Assembly: GCA_036677365.1 (NCBI GenBank)
Contig: JAVBWN010000012.1
Span: 148,478-212,477, forward strand
DNA from: Acholeplasma sp.
Lineage (GTDB): Bacteria > Bacillota_I > Bacilli_A > Acholeplasmatales > UBA5453
Length of the DNA stretch: 64,000 nucleotides
Direction of reading: 5' to 3'
Shown here: one piece after another, positions 1,204 through 8,760 of the stretch
Layout: each line of letters opens with the position of its first letter
Position numbering within the stretch: position 1 is the first letter of the stretch
Program-made: the position numbers and the translations under genes
The notes under the pieces: generated by a model
The model's input: only the letters and a program-made list of their open reading frames with translations
Database searches by the model: none
Told to the model about the DNA's origin: nothing

Positions 1204-2323
1204 GGTAGTTTGGGGATGCTTTCATGTGTTTTACATCGTGGGGATGGGATTCTTTCAATCCAGCATGGGTAATTTTCATAAATCTGGCGTATAGTTTCAT
1301 GTCTTCAATGGTTTTACACCCACAATAACCCATCCCTGAACGTAAGCCACCCATCATTTGATAAATCACATCATGGATAGGACCTTTATAAGGGACACAA
1401 GCTTCAATGCCTTCAGGCACCAACTTGTTGAGTTCTTTGACCCCACCTTGGAAGTAGCGGTCAGAAGACCCTCGTTGCATGGCGGTTAAAGACCCCATGC
1501 CAATGTAGGTTTTGTATTTTAAACCATCTTTTTCAAATACCTCACCAGGGGATTCACTACAGCCAGCGAGTAAACTGCCCATCATCACACAGTCAGCACC
1601 TGCAGCGAGTGCTTTCGGGATGTCACCAGAAAGCTTAATCCCACCATCAGCGATGATCCCAACTTTATATTGTTTCGCAACCGAATACACATCGTTGATA
1701 GCGGATAGTTGTGGGACACCTACTCCGGCAACCACACGGGTGGTACAAATCGACCCTGGACCAACCCCCACTTTTAAACAGGTTGCGCCAGCATAGATGA
1801 GGTCGATGGCTGCTTGTGCAGTGACTATGTTCCCACCAATGATGTCTAAATCTGGGTATTTGTGACGTATCGATTTGATGGTTTCAATCACGCCTTTAGA
1901 ATGACCGTGGGCTGAATCTACCGCGATGATATCGACCCCTGCAGATACCAACGCATCGATGCGTTCTAAGGTATTCTTAGATACACCCACCGCTGCCCCA
2001 ACACGTAAACGACCCAATTCATCTTTGGTTGCGTCGGTTTCATTAAATGTGGCTGATTTAACCAGTTGTATTTCTTTGACTTGGTCTTCAATCGACATAT
2101 TTTTATGTATGATGCCTAAGCCACCCAGTTTCGCTAAAGCGATGGCCATCGTAGACTCTGTCACGGTGTCCATCGCTGCCGATAACACTGGGATGGCTAA
2201 CGAGATCTTTTTAGTCAATTTCGTATCGAGTTTGACTTGAATCGGTACGACCTCAGAATATGATGGAACCAACAATAAATCATCAAATGTATAACCCTCA
2301 GCGGTTATTTTTTCTTTTAACAT
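1196..2323 (-). CDS. guaB: IMP dehydrogenase (no CBS subdomain)
   Basis: [42 protein letters not shown] (catalytic Cys), ADGGIK, GMGSL, VPEGIE; adjacent to guaA. Confidence 0.98.
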
Positions 2324-2494: not shown

Positions 2495-3274
2495 ATGAAT
2501 AGAAAAAATGTGTTATGGTTTTTGGGTTTACTATTGGCTTGGCTTTCTTACATCCCACTGGGGTTTCTGATTGTAGAAACCAACGCCTTTGGACAATTGT
2601 ATGAAAGTTTAAATTTATCACAATCCAGTTTACGTTATTACATCACAGAGAATGCGTTTGATATGGCATTTATGGGCATCTTAACGATTGGTTTATTCAT
2701 CCTATTGATCAATCGTTTTAAATACACCCAGGCAGTTCACTTTAAAATAACAACCATCACTAAAGTGGTTGTTTTGAGTGCTGTGATGATTTCAATCTTA
2801 GGTATGGTCATTCAAGTGTTATTCGCAGGGTCTAACCATCCCTTACATGCCTATATTGGCGAATACATCAAACAATTGTTGTGGGTTGGGATGGTTGAAG
2901 AATTGATCTTTAGAGGGTATATATTCATTGAACTATTGAAATTGAAATCCTCTAAGTTTAAGTTAATATATATCGTTTTAATATCGGCTTTTATGTTTTC
3001 TATCATTCATTTACCAGCCTATTTCTTATACAACAGCCAATATGATTTATTATCCATTGTTTGGAATTTGATTTTCCCATTTTCCATTGGGGTCTTATAT
3101 GCGTATCTTTTATATATGAATAATGACATCATTTCGCTCATCTTCATTCACACAACCTCAAACATGATTTCATATTACACTGGTATCATGGGTACGGTGT
3201 GGCTAGTATTATTTTGGGTGGGATTGGGTTATTACACCTATCATTCATATAAAACATATCTTCAAAACAAATAA
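2495..3274 (+). CDS. CPBP/Rce1-family intramembrane glutamic endopeptidase
   Basis: Multi-TM protein with EELIFRG, FSIIH and HxxxN motifs. Confidence 0.85.
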   Translation: MNRKNVLWFLGLLLAWLSYIPLGFLIVETNAFGQLYESLNLSQSSLRYYITENAFDMAFMGILTIGLFILLINRFKYTQAVHFKITTITKVVVLSAVMISILGMVIQVLFAGSNHPLHAYIGEYIKQLLWVGMVEELIFRGYIFIELLKLKSSKFKLIYIVLISAFMFSIIHLPAYFLYNSQYDLLSIVWNLIFPFSIGVLYAYLLYMNNDIISLIFIHTTSNMISYYTGIMGTVWLVLFWVGLGYYTYHSYKTYLQNK

Positions 3275-3323
3275 AGAAGTGCTACTACAGAACAGCATAA
3301 GTCAACGATTAGGATATAAAAAT

Positions 3324-3387
3324 AAAAAAACAGAAGCAGTAATCTGGCCTTCTGTTTTTTGAAACTCGATATGAGTTTTCAGGACAT
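3324..3387 (-). ncRNA. Putative small structured RNA, copy A (downstream of the Abi gene); candidate RNA antitoxin
   Basis: Minus-strand AUGUCCUGAAA-ACUCAUAUCGA-GUUUCAAAAAACAGAAGGCCAGAUUACUGCUUCUGUUUUUUU. Two hairpins, the second a U-tailed terminator. Own promoter at 3392-3420; near-identical copy at 4416-4479. Confidence 0.6.
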
Positions 3388-3391
3388 GATT

Positions 3392-3420
3392 ATTATATCA
3401 CGAGGAATTTTTGTATGCAA
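3392..3420 (-). promoter_or_regulatory. sigma70-type promoter for RNA copy A
   Basis: TTGCAT (3420-3415), 17 nt, then TG-n-TATAAT (3397-3392), immediately after the Abi stop codon and with no ORF downstream. Confidence 0.7.
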
Positions 3421-3426
3421 AACAAA

Positions 3427-4368
3427 TTACTTGAAAGTTGACTGAACAGTTTTACAATCAGATGATAAACCTAAGCTTAGCAACAGTGAGTTAACATTCA
3501 CTGATCCTTTCTTATTGTAATGAGCAATCTCTAGTATATTTCGCATTATCGACTTAAAAAAAGTTATATTATCTTGCAACAAGTACGAACAATGGGCAAT
3601 AGTAGCGAATAATGAAACTTTATTTTTATTGAGAATAAAGTGCGGATTGTAAATGTATGGATGAAATTTTGAATTGGAGATTTTTTTCCCCTTTAAAGTA
3701 TCAAAATCAAGAATAAACTCACCATGTGCACAGGCATTTCTCAAGTAGTTTAGCTTCTCTACCACATTATTGAATTCAGAGATTTTTAAATCAAAACTGT
3801 TTACAATGCGCTCTTTAATGTCTTTATTTAGTAACTTGAAAAAGGTCCTAATTTGTCCGAATGTTAAATAGTGAGCAATTACGAATGGTGGCACAGATTC
3901 AATGGTAGAAAAATGATATTTAGCATCTAAATTTTTTTTCTTTTTCGCATAGACTGTCCAGCATTCATCAATAAAAGCAGTTTTTACCGCATTACGATCT
4001 TCATCAGTGCCTGTATTAGGGTAGTCAAAGACATCTACAATAAATGAGTTTATTGTAAAATATGCATAACCATTATCTTTACAATAATATGAATACTCAT
4101 CTGCAATTTTGTTTCTGATAATTCTCTCACATCTAAGCACTAACAATAAGACTTCTTTAGAAATTTTTTCATTGGTTTCCTCTAGCCACTTGTAATCTTG
4201 AACGGTAAAGAAGGCTAATTTACCATCGTGAAAAAGATATTTCTCATAGTTATGGTTAATTAGGTAATAGCTGGTTGTTTTCAAATAAGCTTCAATTTCT
4301 TTCTTAGTTGAAATACAACCTTTTTCAATTTGTCGATTTACTTGTCCTTCTAAAGTTAATGGCTCCAT
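3427..4368 (-). CDS. Abi_2 (AbiD/AbiF-like) abortive-infection protein with HEPN RNase motif
   Basis: N-terminal 'TLEGQV...SYY' pattern, 'PPFVIAHYLTFGQI' and 'LRNACAH' (RxxxxH HEPN) typical of Abi_2; RBS GAGGTG; AT-rich. Confidence 0.85.
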   Translation of the reverse strand: MEPLTLEGQVNRQIEKGCISTKKEIEAYLKTTSYYLINHNYEKYLFHDGKLAFFTVQDYKWLEETNEKISKEVLLLVLRCERIIRNKIADEYSYYCKDNGYAYFTINSFIVDVFDYPNTGTDEDRNAVKTAFIDECWTVYAKKKKNLDAKYHFSTIESVPPFVIAHYLTFGQIRTFFKLLNKDIKERIVNSFDLKISEFNNVVEKLNYLRNACAHGEFILDFDTLKGKKISNSKFHPYIYNPHFILNKNKVSLFATIAHCSYLLQDNITFFKSIMRNILEIAHYNKKGSVNVNSLLLSLGLSSDCKTVQSTFK

Positions 4369-4415
4369 ATGTTCACACCTCTAAAGTTTATATATTAGGT
4401 ATATTATAACATAAT

Positions 4416-4479
4416 AAAAAAAACAGAAGCAGTAATCTGGCCTTCTGTTTTTTGAAACCATCAATCGGTTTCAGGACAT
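4416..4479 (-). ncRNA. Putative small structured RNA, copy B (leader of the Abi gene); candidate RNA antitoxin
   Basis: AUGUCCUGAAA-CCGAUUGAUG-GUUUCAAAAAACAGAAGGCCAGAUUACUGCUUCUGUUUUUUUU. 42 nt (4417-4458 = 3324-3365) plus 11 nt (4469-4479 = 3377-3387) are identical to copy A. Confidence 0.65.
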
Positions 4480-4484
4480 AATCA

Positions 4485-4513
4485 ATAATACCATAACGTG
4501 ATTTTGTAGTCAA
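4485..4513 (-). promoter_or_regulatory. sigma70-type promoter for RNA copy B / Abi gene
   Basis: TTGACT (4513-4508), 17 nt, then TG-n-TATTAT (4490-4485). Confidence 0.7.
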
Positions 4514-4652
4514 TCCATTTTAGAACAAACTAAAAAAAATGCAAAATTGTAGAATAAGTATAATCTATATTCTATGAAAAGCGTATAAGATAGAATAATA
4601 CAATGATTATTCGTTTATTTTCTAGTATAATGATATAGTGAAGGTGAAAGAA

Positions 4653-5801
4653 ATGGATAAATTTGTAAGTTACGAAAAACGATTCTATAACCCTGAATTT
4701 ACGGATACAAAGTTAGCGAAAAGAAAAAGAATGATGACAGATAAGCCTTATCTAAGTGCTACTATTAAGGATTTATCCCAAATAAAGATAGAAATCAGTC
4801 AAGAAACACAAGATTTGTTACTAGACTCGGTAGAAGGTTTAGCAAGACTTGATGGATATGTTCATCATTATCGAGATTTAATTTCTATGGTCATGCTAAG
4901 AGCTGAAGCTTTATCTAGTTCACAAATAGAACATTATAGTGCCTCTAATCGAAGCGTGGCATTGGCACAAATTCACAAAAAGCAATCCACAGAAGCCATG
5001 ATCATCAAATCCAACTTAGAGTCTTTGATTTTAGGTATTTCATCAAAAGAACCACTAGATACAAGTAAAATCATCCAATTGAATCAAACACTTTTAAAAA
5101 ATCCAACCATGGACGTGCGTACCCGAATCAATTGGATTGGGACACCCAATTCTATACCCCATGAAGCAACCTATGTGCCACCACACCCTGAGCATCTTAA
5201 TTTGTTTATGAGTCAGTTCATAGCTTTTTGTAATAGAAATGACATGCACCCATTGATTCAGTCAGCTATAGCTCATGCCTATTTTGAACTCATTCATCCA
5301 TTCGAAGATGGAAATGGTCGTGTTGGCAGAATACTCATTCAGTGTTTATTAAGAGAAAAGCAGTTTTTAGAATTTCTTTCAATGCCATTTTCTGTAGGGA
5401 TTGTTCATGATCAAGTCAGGTACATTCAAGCACTAAATGATTTTAAAGAAGGCAATTATGAGACCATCATTATTGTGCTATTAGAAAACACATTATACCT
5501 CGTACCCAAAGTGTATGATACACTAGAAAAACTCATAAAACTCAAACAAAACTGGAAAGCCAAATTGAACATTCGACAAGATGCCCTAGCATGGAAAATA
5601 CTGGATGATTTGATTGCACAACCCGTCATTGATGTAAAATATATTAGAGAAAAACACCAAGCCAATGATCAAGCTGTCAGAAATAACATACAAACGCTTG
5701 TGAATGTAGGTATCTTAAACATCATAGGTAACGATAGTCGTGATGTTGCTTATGAATCCATTGAGGTATTGGATTTATTAGACCAATTCTCTAAAAAATA
5801 A
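4653..5801 (+). CDS. Fic-family protein (class II-like, C-terminal HTH)
   Basis: Fic motif HPFEDGNGRVGR; N-terminal inhibitory-type SSQIE motif; ATG 4653 follows RBS AAGGTG (alternative GTG at 4638). Confidence 0.92.
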   Translation: MDKFVSYEKRFYNPEFTDTKLAKRKRMMTDKPYLSATIKDLSQIKIEISQETQDLLLDSVEGLARLDGYVHHYRDLISMVMLRAEALSSSQIEHYSASNRSVALAQIHKKQSTEAMIIKSNLESLILGISSKEPLDTSKIIQLNQTLLKNPTMDVRTRINWIGTPNSIPHEATYVPPHPEHLNLFMSQFIAFCNRNDMHPLIQSAIAHAYFELIHPFEDGNGRVGRILIQCLLREKQFLEFLSMPFSVGIVHDQVRYIQALNDFKEGNYETIIIVLLENTLYLVPKVYDTLEKLIKLKQNWKAKLNIRQDALAWKILDDLIAQPVIDVKYIREKHQANDQAVRNNIQTLVNVGILNIIGNDSRDVAYESIEVLDLLDQFSKK

Positions 5802-5885
5802 ATCAGAACCTGTCATTTAGCGAAGTATTCTCACCAATAAATAAAAGCATTTTATCGTATATTATATGTAAGAAAGGATGACATC

Positions 5886-8144
5886 ATGAAAAGAGTATGG
5901 ATTTTCTTTATCCTAATGATGAGCATAGTGAGCATGTATGGTCACTTTTTTAGTCATGAAGCTCATGATGTGAACACCTTCACCTTGTTATATGAGACCA
6001 CGGATTTATCAGAACTCGATGGGTATATTCAAACCCATGATATGGTTATCCAAGATTATGATGGTAGAATCGCTGAAATTATGTATACAGGGACTGCTAT
6101 AGATAAACTCATTGAAGATGGTTTCGTGTATGAGGGAATTTATTCAACTCAAAACCCACCATGGGTTAAACCCATCGTCAATGACCCTTATTTTCCAAAT
6201 CAATATGCTTTAAAACTAACCAATACCGACGATGCTTGGGGTATTACTACGGGTTCAAGTGCGGTTACTGTCGCCATCATCGATACAGGCATTGATGTCG
6301 ATCACCCGGAATTTACAGGTAGAGTATCTGAATTATCGTATAACGCTGTTACCCAAATGGTTGGCTTAGAAGCGGTAGAAGATGATCAAGGCCACGGAAC
6401 CATGGTGGCAGGTGTCATCGGTGCGAATTCAAACAACAGCACAGGGGTTGCTGGGGTAACCAATGCTGTACAGTTGATGGTTATCAAAGCCAATGAAGCG
6501 GGTGAGGATACGTTTAAAGATTCTGACATCATTCGAGGGATCTATTATGCCGTGGACAATGGTGCAGACATCATCAACTTATCCATAGGTAGCACTTATG
6601 CGAACCCACTCACCAAAAAAGCATTAGATTACGCACTAGAAAAGAATGTCCTAGTTGTCGCTTCATCCGGTAATGATGGTGAAAACATCAAGATATACCC
6701 AGCCTCCTTTGACACAGTCATTTCAGTGGGGTCTGTCGATCAATATTCAAATCTATCCTCATTTTCCAATTATAACGATAAAGTCGATGTGGTCGCCCCA
6801 GGTAGCGGGATTGTAACGACCAACCGTGCGAATACATATTCAACCGTTAACGGAACATCCTTTTCAAGTCCTTATGTGGCGGGGATCGCTGCTTTATACA
6901 AGAGTTTACACCCAGAAGCAACCGTAGCTCATTTAACCGATGTCATCACATCCACGGCCAAAGATTTGGGTACCACCGGGTATGATATCCAATATGGTCA
7001 TGGCTTAATTGATGCTTTAGCGATGGTCTCACTTTCTTATATCCAAGTGACTGTGGATTACCCACTCGATATTCCTAGCAGTTATTATTACGTGACCTCA
7101 GGTGGTACCATCAGTATTGAAAGACCACCGGTCATCGATTACTATGAGTTTGTTGGTTGGTACTTAGATGAAGCTTATCAAATCCCATATGAATCTACCT
7201 ATGCTTTTACAACGAATACCACGATCTATGCGTATTATCGTAAAACCCATGGGGTCATCACTTGGGTGATTGATGAACAAATCGTATCCACAGAAACCCT
7301 TTCGTTAGGGTCACTACCAACACCACCCGATACCAATTTACCAGGTGTCACATTCTATGGCTGGTATTTGGATGAAGCCTATACCCAGCCCGTCACAGAC
7401 TTCATGGTAACGGATGATCAAACCTATTATGGGTATTATCAAGTTCAATATTTTGAACTACAATACCTCGCAGAAGACCATACCACCCTATTGTCCATCA
7501 TTCAGTATTCTAGTATTGAACCCATCGAATGGATGGCGGGTCCTGAAAAACCTTCGGATTTATATTATAATTACACATTCATCGGTTGGACAGAAGCGGT
7601 TCTATATGAATCCGAAATTGTGTATGTCTATCCTATCTATAAAAAAGTCTTGAAGCCCGATTTGTCAGGGTTAAACCCTGGGGTAGATACCATCATTGAA
7701 GGACAAACTTATATCGATACAGGGATCTTTGTTTTAGTTGAGGGTTTAACCGTTCAAACGGTGGGTTCGATTGATTCGACTGAAGTTGGGGTTCAAACCT
7801 TGACTTATGAGATATACGACGGTGAAACCCTGGTGTATACCTTAATCCGAAAGATTCGAGTATTGACCGATAATCGATTGGTGGTTACCCTCAATAAAGC
7901 GATCACGACTTTATATGTCGGTGATGATTATGTGGACCGAGGGGTCACCTATAATAAAGGTATCTTGGTCAAAACAGGTGAAGTCGACATCTCTAAAACA
8001 GGCATATATAAAATCACCTACACCGTCACGTATCGTGACCAAGTGGTGGTAAAATCAAGGTATGTCATCGTGCTCGCTAGAGAAATCGAAACCCCTGTAG
8101 GCTATATACCGAGTAGAAAAGAGGATGACATCAATGAAAGCTAA
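5886..8144 (+). CDS. Secreted S8 (subtilisin-like) serine peptidase with InlB B-repeat and DUF5011-type Ig-like domains
   Basis: Triad motifs IIDTG, HGTMVAG, GTSFSSP; 'FVGWYLDEAY...YAYY' repeats; 'LNPGVDT' Ig-like repeats; signal peptide. Confidence 0.92.
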   Translation: MKRVWIFFILMMSIVSMYGHFFSHEAHDVNTFTLLYETTDLSELDGYIQTHDMVIQDYDGRIAEIMYTGTAIDKLIEDGFVYEGIYSTQNPPWVKPIVNDPYFPNQYALKLTNTDDAWGITTGSSAVTVAIIDTGIDVDHPEFTGRVSELSYNAVTQMVGLEAVEDDQGHGTMVAGVIGANSNNSTGVAGVTNAVQLMVIKANEAGEDTFKDSDIIRGIYYAVDNGADIINLSIGSTYANPLTKKALDYALEKNVLVVASSGNDGENIKIYPASFDTVISVGSVDQYSNLSSFSNYNDKVDVVAPGSGIVTTNRANTYSTVNGTSFSSPYVAGIAALYKSLHPEATVAHLTDVITSTAKDLGTTGYDIQYGHGLIDALAMVSLSYIQVTVDYPLDIPSSYYYVTSGGTISIERPPVIDYYEFVGWYLDEAYQIPYESTYAFTTNTTIYAYYRKTHGVITWVIDEQIVSTETLSLGSLPTPPDTNLPGVTFYGWYLDEAYTQPVTDFMVTDDQTYYGYYQVQYFELQYLAEDHTTLLSIIQYSSIEPIEWMAGPEKPSDLYYNYTFIGWTEAVLYESEIVYVYPIYKKVLKPDLSGLNPGVDTIIEGQTYIDTGIFVLVEGLTVQTVGSIDSTEVGVQTLTYEIYDGETLVYTLIRKIRVLTDNRLVVTLNKAITTLYVGDDYVDRGVTYNKGILVKTGEVDISKTGIYKITYTVTYRDQVVVKSRYVIVLAREIETPVGYIPSRKEDDINES

Positions 8145-8667
8145 ACTTCTGTTAATCCTCCTTGCTTTATTGTTTGTTTTGACTGCCTGTGGGGAAGTAG
8201 ACCCAGATCAAATCCGGTTTGAACTCACTCCAGGGGTAGACACGGTTGAAATCAATTCAACTTTTGAAGATGCTGGTGTGAGGGCTTCTTACTTTGGGTT
8301 ACCAATCCAAGTGGAAATCATCGAAAACACCGTGGATATGAGTGCCATCGGTCAATATCAAATTACGTATCAAATCGATTATCGTGGAATCATTAAAACT
8401 TTAACCAGAGTCGTGTTTGTGGTCGATGAAACCGCACCAATAGGGATACTCAACCCAGGCATCGATACCGTGGTTGTTGGTAATACTTGGACAGACGCCT
8501 TTATATCTGCCAGCGACAATTCAAACGAGGTAGTTTTAATCACAGTAACGGGTTTTGTCAACACAAACTTCGTGGGGAGTTACATGATCACATACACCTT
8601 AGAAGATACCTCGGGTAACCAGTCCATTTATTATCGCTGGGTCTATGTGATGGAAAATATCAACTAA
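8134..8667 (+). CDS. Lipoprotein with two DUF5011-type Ig-like domains
   Basis: Lipobox LTAC; two 'L.PG.DTV...D...Y.ITY' units; overlaps the protease stop. Confidence 0.75.
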   Translation: MKAKLLLILLALLFVLTACGEVDPDQIRFELTPGVDTVEINSTFEDAGVRASYFGLPIQVEIIENTVDMSAIGQYQITYQIDYRGIIKTLTRVVFVVDETAPIGILNPGIDTVVVGNTWTDAFISASDNSNEVVLITVTGFVNTNFVGSYMITYTLEDTSGNQSIYYRWVYVMENIN

Positions 8668-8724
8668 AGGCACTGAAAAGTGCTTTTTTCTTGATTAATA
8701 GCACTATGGGTGTTATTATATGAA

Positions 8725-8746
8725 TATATGAACAGACATTCATATA
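8725..8746 (+). promoter_or_regulatory. ArsR/SmtB-type operator
   Basis: Inverted repeat TATATGAA-CAGACA-TTCATATA (TGAA-N6-TTCA core) just upstream of the ArsR gene. Confidence 0.8.
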
Positions 8747-8760
8747 ATAGGAGGTAACCC

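Follow-up and report, generated by a model that had tools for sequence, protein, structure and literature searches.

The 64,000-nucleotide stretch of Acholeplasma sp. DNA analyzed here (contig JAVBWN010000012.1, hereafter the window) probably carries an abortive-infection module that resembles type III toxin–antitoxin (TA) systems, in which a gene of a divergent AbiF clade is accompanied by a hitherto uncatalogued small-RNA class of its own. The gene encodes a putative AbiF-like (Abi_2) HEPN toxin of 313 aa (3427–4368, minus strand; open reading frame (ORF) list and Pfam) and is the one ORF on the minus strand between 3300 and 4520. Its Shine-Dalgarno sequence, AGAGGTG (4376–4382, minus strand), was read from the sequence 7 nt before the ATG at 4366–4368. 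A structured RNA element of about 64 nt lies on each side of this gene and on its strand. Homology to characterized AbiF systems suggests that the element would be produced as discrete transcripts and would act as the antitoxin, and that the module would contribute to phage defense.

A repeat search detected an exact 42-nt direct repeat (3324–3365 = 4417–4458) followed by a second block (3377–3395 and 4469–4487) whose first 11 nt are identical as well (3377–3387 = 4469–4479), the spacing between the identical blocks being 11 nt or 10 nt, depending on the copy. An earlier note made on this DNA had described just such 42-nt and 11-nt blocks bracketing the Abi_2 gene on its strand, and the search confirmed them. 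The two copies stand 1093 nt apart, share 53 identical nt, and differ only in the 10–11 nt at the top of their first hairpin. An exact 42-nt repeat within 2.2 kb is far beyond chance, and the genome (1.97 Mb, 38% G+C) holds just these two copies according to blastn and a covariance model of the element.

The upstream copy (4416–4479, minus strand), delimited by folding, the repeat and the covariance model (87.7 bits), consists from 5' to 3' of the single strand AUGUCCU, hairpin 1 (GAAACC paired with GGUUUC around a 7-nt loop), an A6 linker, hairpin 2, and a U8 tail. Hairpin 2 is built from CAGAAG, a GC bulge and CAG on its 5' side, a 4-nt loop AUUA, and CUG-CUUCUG on its 3' side. The downstream copy (3323–3387, minus strand; fold and covariance model, 91.4 bits) differs at the top of hairpin 1, where a bulged A, CUC paired with GAG, and the loop AUAUC are found, and ends in a U7 tail. 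RNA folding returned the same two hairpins and a run of seven to eight U in both copies, with −20.3 and −18.0 kcal/mol, and none of 200 shuffles was as stable (z −4.0 and −3.9), which agrees with the earlier proposal that both copies end in a U-tailed terminator hairpin. A coding role for the RNA is unlikely: the first nine bases read AUG-UCC-UGA, yet ACG replaces AUG in two homologous loci (L009 and L010). A listed 41-aa ORF with a TTG start (4388–4513, minus strand) is almost certainly not a gene; it overlaps the RNA, the RNA promoter, and the toxin promoter.

Each copy is preceded by its own predicted extended −10 promoter on the minus strand, and the promoter scan bore out this part of the earlier description for both copies, including the TG element. 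The promoter of the upstream RNA (4485–4513) combines the −35 box TTGACT (4508–4513), a 17-nt spacer, TG at 4492–4493, and the −10 box TATTAT (4485–4490), with 10 of 12 matches in the scan. The promoter of the downstream RNA (3392–3420) begins 7 nt past the toxin stop codon and comprises TTGCAT (3415–3420), a 17-nt spacer, TG at 3399–3400, and TATAAT (3392–3397); the scan listed it as TTTGCA-18-TATAAT (3421..3392), which is equivalent to TTGCAT-17-TATAAT. The sequence TTGCATACA is common to this promoter and the downstream copy of L009. In every RNA copy, the pattern TGnTAnnnT ends 4–5 nt before the conserved AYG, which puts the expected transcription start on that A or beside it.

The toxin gene appears to have a promoter of its own. 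The extended −10 element TGTTATAAT (4403–4411, minus strand), read from the sequence, overlaps the end of the upstream U-tract region, and an aligned TGnTAnnnT stands about 35 nt before the start codon in all five lineages compared, including the two without an upstream RNA, in line with the earlier suggestion that this element may drive the toxin directly. Since the toxin has its own conserved promoter, the further suggestion that the upstream copy attenuates toxin transcription survives at most as an accessory effect. On the other side of the gene, the downstream copy lies about 20–45 nt past the stop codon with no other terminator-like site between; therefore, toxin transcripts should enter the RNA and end at its terminator. 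Hairpin 2 of the downstream copy is symmetric (A-tract, stem, U-tract) and stands 50 nt past the stop codon of a convergent CAAX-protease gene (2495–3274, plus strand). Because of this symmetry and placement, it probably also terminates the CAAX-protease gene on the plus strand.

Homologous loci were gathered by a metagenome scan, in which 101 pattern matches yielded six loci. Two of them (L005 and L006) belong to the lineage of the window itself (99–100% protein identity), and the other four are diverged, with protein identities of 64% (L007), 66% (L008), 58% (L009), and 69% (L010). All four diverged loci carry the RNA element on the strand of the toxin, so that a structured non-coding RNA (ncRNA) adjoins the toxin gene in 5/5 lineages with differing neighbors. 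The RNA is 74–89% identical between loci, compared with 65–71% for the DNA of the toxin gene and 50–61% for the 34 nt before the start codon. The 5' single strand follows the consensus AYGWCCU, and G3, CCUG, AAAC, GUUUC, the GGCCAG...CUGC core, and the U-tract are invariant across the seven full copies. The earlier note had tied its RNA proposal to conservation of the 5' AUGUCCUGAAA hairpin in homologues, and the 5' sequence, both hairpins, the promoter, and the U-tract were indeed found to be conserved, with covariation.

For the seven full copies from five lineages, RNAalifold predicted 22 base pairs, all of which are kept in every copy and five of which show compensatory changes: pair 14:23 occurs as U:A, C:G or U:G, 15:22 as C:G or G:U, 33:63 as A:U or U:G, 35:61 as C:G or A:U, and 39:57 as A:U, U:A or C:G. 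In an alignment fitted to the covariance model (nine hits, eight distinct), 159 of 159 cells hold standard pairs and five pairs change on both sides. None of 500 shuffles reached the observed value on any of five pairing measures, and pairing fell to 45–55% when the partners were slid by 1–3 columns. The partial upstream copy of L008, which had been left outside model building, scored 33 bits, and one compensatory pair differs between the upstream and the downstream copy of that locus (U:A vs C:G).

The arrangement of the copies differs among the lineages. A downstream copy follows the toxin gene in all four lineages whose 3' flank is visible, namely the window, L007, L008, and L009; the L010 contig ends inside the toxin gene, and its downstream flank is absent from the sequence. 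An upstream copy, which its terminator separates from the toxin gene, occurs in three of five lineages: the window, L010, and L008, whose copy is truncated at the contig end. L007 and L009 have none upstream. As the upstream copy is missing in two of five lineages, the unusual RNA-toxin-RNA layout noticed earlier is one variant of a toxin-RNA core. On the available sequences, the conserved core is the toxin gene followed by the RNA, with RNA-toxin-RNA as a frequent variant.

The hairpins show a weak pattern that bears on the origin of the copies. Hairpin 1 of the upstream copy in the window (C:G at 14:23, no bulge) resembles that of the upstream copy in L010, whereas in the window, L006, L007, and L008 the downstream copies have a bulged base and U:A in common; hairpin 2 is identical between the two window copies. 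The sequences suggest, on the basis of two upstream copies, that the upstream copy is an old duplication and that hairpin 2 has been kept uniform within the locus. In L007, a T-run and the same TTTTTTTATGATATAAT as in L008 lie upstream of the toxin gene (about 1230–1300); judged from its sequence, this context may be the remnant of a lost upstream RNA copy. A transposase-like ORF stands on the other strand, 300 nt farther upstream.

Pfam assigned the protein to Abi_2 (PF07751) with 67 bits against a cut-off of 25.6 (E 3.4e-18, residues 28–218). The HEPN R-x4-H motif is R210-N-A-C-A-H215 within YLRNACAHGEF, and R210, N211, C213, A214, and H215 are unchanged in 15/15 aligned sequences. The AlphaFold model (pLDDT 92.1, pTM 0.86) was compared with the PDB by Foldseek, and among the at least 500 matches listed, the only one with E ≤ 0.001 was 8vz6_A, described as 'PbAbiF dimer bound to ncRNA' (E 2e-6, prob 1.00, TM 0.66/0.69, 316 columns); the second-best match had E 0.28. 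A sequence profile also found 8vz6 (E 1.4e-4), and RNACAH aligns with its RNSCCH stretch. Judged by sequence and model together, the window protein is an AbiF-fold HEPN protein, a divergent and rare relative of the AbiF anti-phage RNase, consistent with the earlier reading of the gene as Abi_2 with an RNACAH motif.

The protein belongs to a small, isolated clade. Among 5.8 billion clusters, a word-indexed search found 16 proteins at 54–99% identity, all of them Abi_2, and a HMMER scan of 1.84 billion representatives returned one cluster at E 1e-155 with the runner-up at E 2e-14 (455 at E ≤ 0.001, five at E ≤ 1e-10, and one at E ≤ 1e-30). A two-copy complex prediction pointed to a homodimer, with ipSAE 0.74 against 0.00 for the best control, agreement between runs in at least 90% of contacts, partner pLDDT of at least 88, and residues 214–216 in the interface. 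The same ipSAE mark was reached by 20 of 30 proteins solved as one-chain pairs and by one of 23 solved as single chains, and as 8VZ6 is itself a solved dimer, the pass may merely reflect likeness to, or memory of, that structure.

According to a preprint (bioRxiv 10.1101/2025.04.15.648962) and two reviews (PMC12737573 and PMC13064643), AbiF is a type III TA system in which a cis-encoded ncRNA binds the HEPN homodimer and blocks its active site, and the RNA is located upstream of AbiF in the published systems. A survey of the main texts of part of the published AbiF work turned up no downstream or flanking RNA layout. The closest structural counterpart of the window protein is the PbAbiF/AbiFr pair of Prevotellaceae (PDB 8VZ6), reportedly the work of Zilberzwige-Tal et al. 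in Cell in 2025. Both proteins are single-HEPN Abi_2 proteins of about 300 aa that have R and H at positions 210 and 215, their overall folds agree, a symmetric homodimer with the HEPN motif in its interface is predicted here, and both are accompanied by a small cis-encoded RNA whose structure includes a conserved bulged hairpin. The RNA of the window is of another sequence class, and its binding to and inhibition of the protein are proposed by analogy. In the reviews, the ncRNA of PbAbiF is upstream, whereas here the conserved copy follows the toxin under its own promoter and a second one is sometimes found upstream.

In the study on Clostridioides difficile (bioRxiv 10.1101/2025.04.15.648962), RCd22 is one upstream RNA that includes two Rfam abiF motifs and a terminator, and AbiF_Cd is made by read-through without a promoter of its own. 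The order of promoter, small RNA, Rho-independent terminator, and abiF in that system corresponds to the upstream half of the window arrangement, and both systems provide two RNA units per toxin gene. In contrast, the two motifs of RCd22 are in tandem in a single transcript, while in the window each RNA copy forms a gene of its own, one before and one after the toxin, the toxin promoter is conserved, and the Rfam abiF family RF03085 is not matched. The comparison with this motif that the earlier note had proposed was negative: no match at E ≤ 10 was obtained in the 2.4-kb window region, the 106-nt core, or the whole genome, while a positive control upstream of abiF in phage phiC2 gave 37.6 bits (E 7e-5). 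RF03085 was also absent from 22 other Abi_2 loci scanned, the four homologous loci included. Both RNAs are small hairpin RNAs linked to Abi_2 with similar dimensions of hairpin 2 (a 6-bp outer stem, a 3-bp inner stem, and an asymmetric interruption), yet their sequences are unrelated, and the interruption in RF03085 counts 1 nt 5' against 6 nt 3', whereas here it is a 2-nt 5' bulge, an asymmetry in the reverse direction.

Classical type III TA systems are represented by ToxIN, AbiQ, CptIN, and TenpIN in the Discussion of the same preprint. To judge from that section, they likewise combine an RNase toxin with a repeated small-RNA antitoxin, a terminator-set ratio of RNA to toxin, and abortive infection, features that the window module would share by analogy. 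They differ in having a ToxN-like fold and an upstream tandem array processed by the toxin, whereas the window has a HEPN fold, no tandem array, and dispersed copies, each with a promoter, of which the core copy is downstream. CRISPR-Cas13 (type VI) systems feature two HEPN domains in one large effector and a repeat-spacer array, in contrast to the window protein of 313 aa with one RNACAH motif and to two repeats parted by the gene itself.

These comparisons suggest a working scheme. The toxin would be a HEPN RNase, probably a homodimer according to the model, whose interface contains the RNACAH motifs. The RNA of about 64 nt would begin with a single strand, followed by a short hairpin and, after an A-rich linker, a bulged hairpin doubling as an intrinsic terminator, and would be made from strong extended −10 promoters in excess over the weakly promoted toxin. 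As PbAbiF/AbiFr and C. difficile AbiF/RCd22 suggest by analogy, it would bind the protein and keep its RNase site blocked as long as neither infection nor stress disturbs the balance. In the core order of weak toxin promoter, toxin ORF, RNA promoter, RNA, and terminator, each toxin mRNA would carry one RNA unit at its 3' end and the promoter of the RNA itself would supply the excess. The optional upstream copy, present here and in at least two other lineages and presumably duplicated anciently, would add RNA, and its terminator could insulate the toxin gene from upstream transcription.

Several points weigh against this scheme. The comparative set is small, with five lineages, seven distinct full copies, and one partial copy, and the pair counts come from an alignment that was fitted to the covariance model. 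As the RNA lacks a match to RF03085, its homology to a proven antitoxin is not established, and the sequence identity between the toxin and PbAbiF is only 14%. The published AbiF RNAs are upstream, whereas the conserved copy here is downstream. A simple terminator scan listed the hairpin of neither copy, because the loop and the bulge fall outside its rules. Two public RNA runs contained words of the stretch (shares 0.17 and 0.05), both as contigs: a metatranscriptome contig of 455 nt lies inside the toxin gene (3731–4185, five differences), and one of 151 nt covers 3218–3367 with one additional T after 3318 and spans the junction of the CAAX-protease gene and the RNA. These matches are contigs without strand or ends and give no direct evidence of transcription.

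The last point would also suit a rival explanation, that the element is only a duplicated bidirectional terminator or an mRNA-stabilizing end structure, with no trans-acting RNA and with the toxin, if it is one, controlled otherwise. Hairpin 2 with its U-tract resembles an intrinsic terminator, the A-tract lets both strands work, the downstream copy is positioned to stop the convergent CAAX-protease gene, and the plus strand scores about 20 bits with the covariance model through the symmetric hairpin. Nevertheless, a terminator has no need of the conserved AYGWCCU, a compensated hairpin 1, or an invariant GC bulge, nor of a dedicated extended −10 promoter at a fixed 4–5 nt in every copy. The element is better conserved than the coding sequence, and its minus strand scores 72–91 bits against 17–22 bits for the plus strand, so that we regard a mere terminator as improbable. 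It also seems unlikely that the RNA is a bound cofactor that positively shapes the activity of the nuclease as a sensor, specificity or guide-like component, rather than (or not only) an inhibitor, with the top of hairpin 1 as the part that differs. Such a role would fit a fold related to that of PbAbiF, which was solved with its ncRNA, as well as the proposal in PMC12737573 that the AbiF ncRNA is a forerunner of CRISPR RNA (crRNA), and the confinement of all differences between the window copies to the top of hairpin 1 would agree with it. On the other hand, this variable stretch is tiny and mostly base-paired, neither an array nor acquisition genes accompany it, and both published AbiF RNAs are inhibitors. 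Antisense pairing of the RNA with the toxin translation start was likewise discarded, the complementarity being no better than that of shuffled sequences (fraction as good 0.16–0.84).

That the copies are scars of mobility, left by attachment- or target-site duplication or marking the ends of a small mobile cassette, instead of functional RNA genes is very improbable. In its favor, the toxin gene was not found in 9/9 same-genus genomes searched, a transposase-like gene neighbors the L007 toxin, and one same-genus genome (G004, locus L019) has an empty site, where the CAAX-protease gene is directly followed by the ArsR-type gene (window 8761) with an unrelated terminator between; therefore, the segment of the window from about 3275 to 8760 (about 5.5 kb) is a variable insertion. 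However, the repeats bracket only the 1.1-kb AbiF gene and not this insertion, no RNA-like sequence was seen at the empty site, the L007 and L009 toxin loci have a single copy each, and compensatory changes have preserved the structure of the copies from locus to locus. The AbiF module shares the insertion with a Fic/DOC-domain gene (4638–5801, plus strand; Pfam) and, judged by translation, with an S8-type peptidase-like gene (5886–8144, plus strand) and a lipoprotein-like gene (8125–8667, plus strand), and the whole may be a small variable or defense islet. Among 60 relatives searched, the gene was found in just three, all distant (E 1.6e-8 or weaker). The neighbors, judged by translation, are transposase-like and vWA-like genes in L007, polyamine genes and a membrane protein gene in L009, and an HNH-like gene in L010; considering that these are unrelated to one another and to those of the window and yet the RNA is kept, the RNA travels with the gene and not with the site.

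If the module is indeed a toxin with an RNA antitoxin, a distant AbiF clade with a different RNA and a different gene order would widen the known range of RNA partners and layouts. To our knowledge, only two AbiF/ncRNA systems have been studied experimentally, both with the RNA upstream. It is conceivable, although rather doubtful, that the present one is the first AbiF or type III-like system that must carry its antitoxin RNA gene 3' of the toxin, with an RNA class absent from Rfam and an upstream copy that is an ancient paralogue. In that case, each protomer of the HEPN dimer could take up one of the two RNAs, or the RNAs could be under different regulation. AbiF with its ncRNA has recently been proposed as the ancestor of Cas13 with its crRNA, and the repeat-bracketed nuclease gene would then be a natural example of an antitoxin RNA that starts to multiply around an AbiF-like effector. 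Abi_2 genes without the Rfam abiF motif may similarly have unrecognized RNA partners, possibly downstream, and the compact module of about 1.2 kb is directly testable.

Beyond the homologous loci, the covariance model of the RNA found nothing better than E 1.3 in seven distant Abi_2 loci (L002–L004 and L012–L015) and had zero hits in 11 Abi_2 loci from a 399-genome phylum sample. A protein-pattern scan retrieved 54 stretches from genome contigs and 38 from viral contigs, with no relatives among either. A DNA pattern of the linker and hairpin 2 matched one stretch in genome contigs, which was a chance match inside an ORF, and none in viral contigs, where a looser hairpin-2 pattern gave eight stretches, none of them real (best 15.3 bits, E 0.22, without hairpin 1). 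By tblastn, five plasmid and 18 phage records were found, all below 37% identity. The only match to a CRISPR direct repeat was dismissed as chance-level, lying on the opposite strand (16.8 bits, E 2.2).

Gene-flanking repeats were absent from the 18 distant Abi_2 loci except L002 (G047:C2), where direct repeats of about 170 nt (1309–1480 and 2136–2275) with a terminator-like hairpin end flank a truncated Abi_2 ORF of 159 aa that comprises the C-terminal half only and retains IRNACAHG. These repeats (84% and 86% identity) belong to a dispersed family that gave five to seven matches per genome in three genomes of that genus, and most copies have no Abi-like ORF nearby; the family is not tied to Abi genes, and L002 was rejected as a parallel to the window layout. 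In L014, from Streptococcus phage IPP38, a sub-threshold match to Spy779816, a small-RNA family of S. pyogenes, lies between a distant Abi gene and an integrase gene (1897–1979, minus strand; 41.8 bits with a gathering score of 67, E 7e-4, opposite strand).

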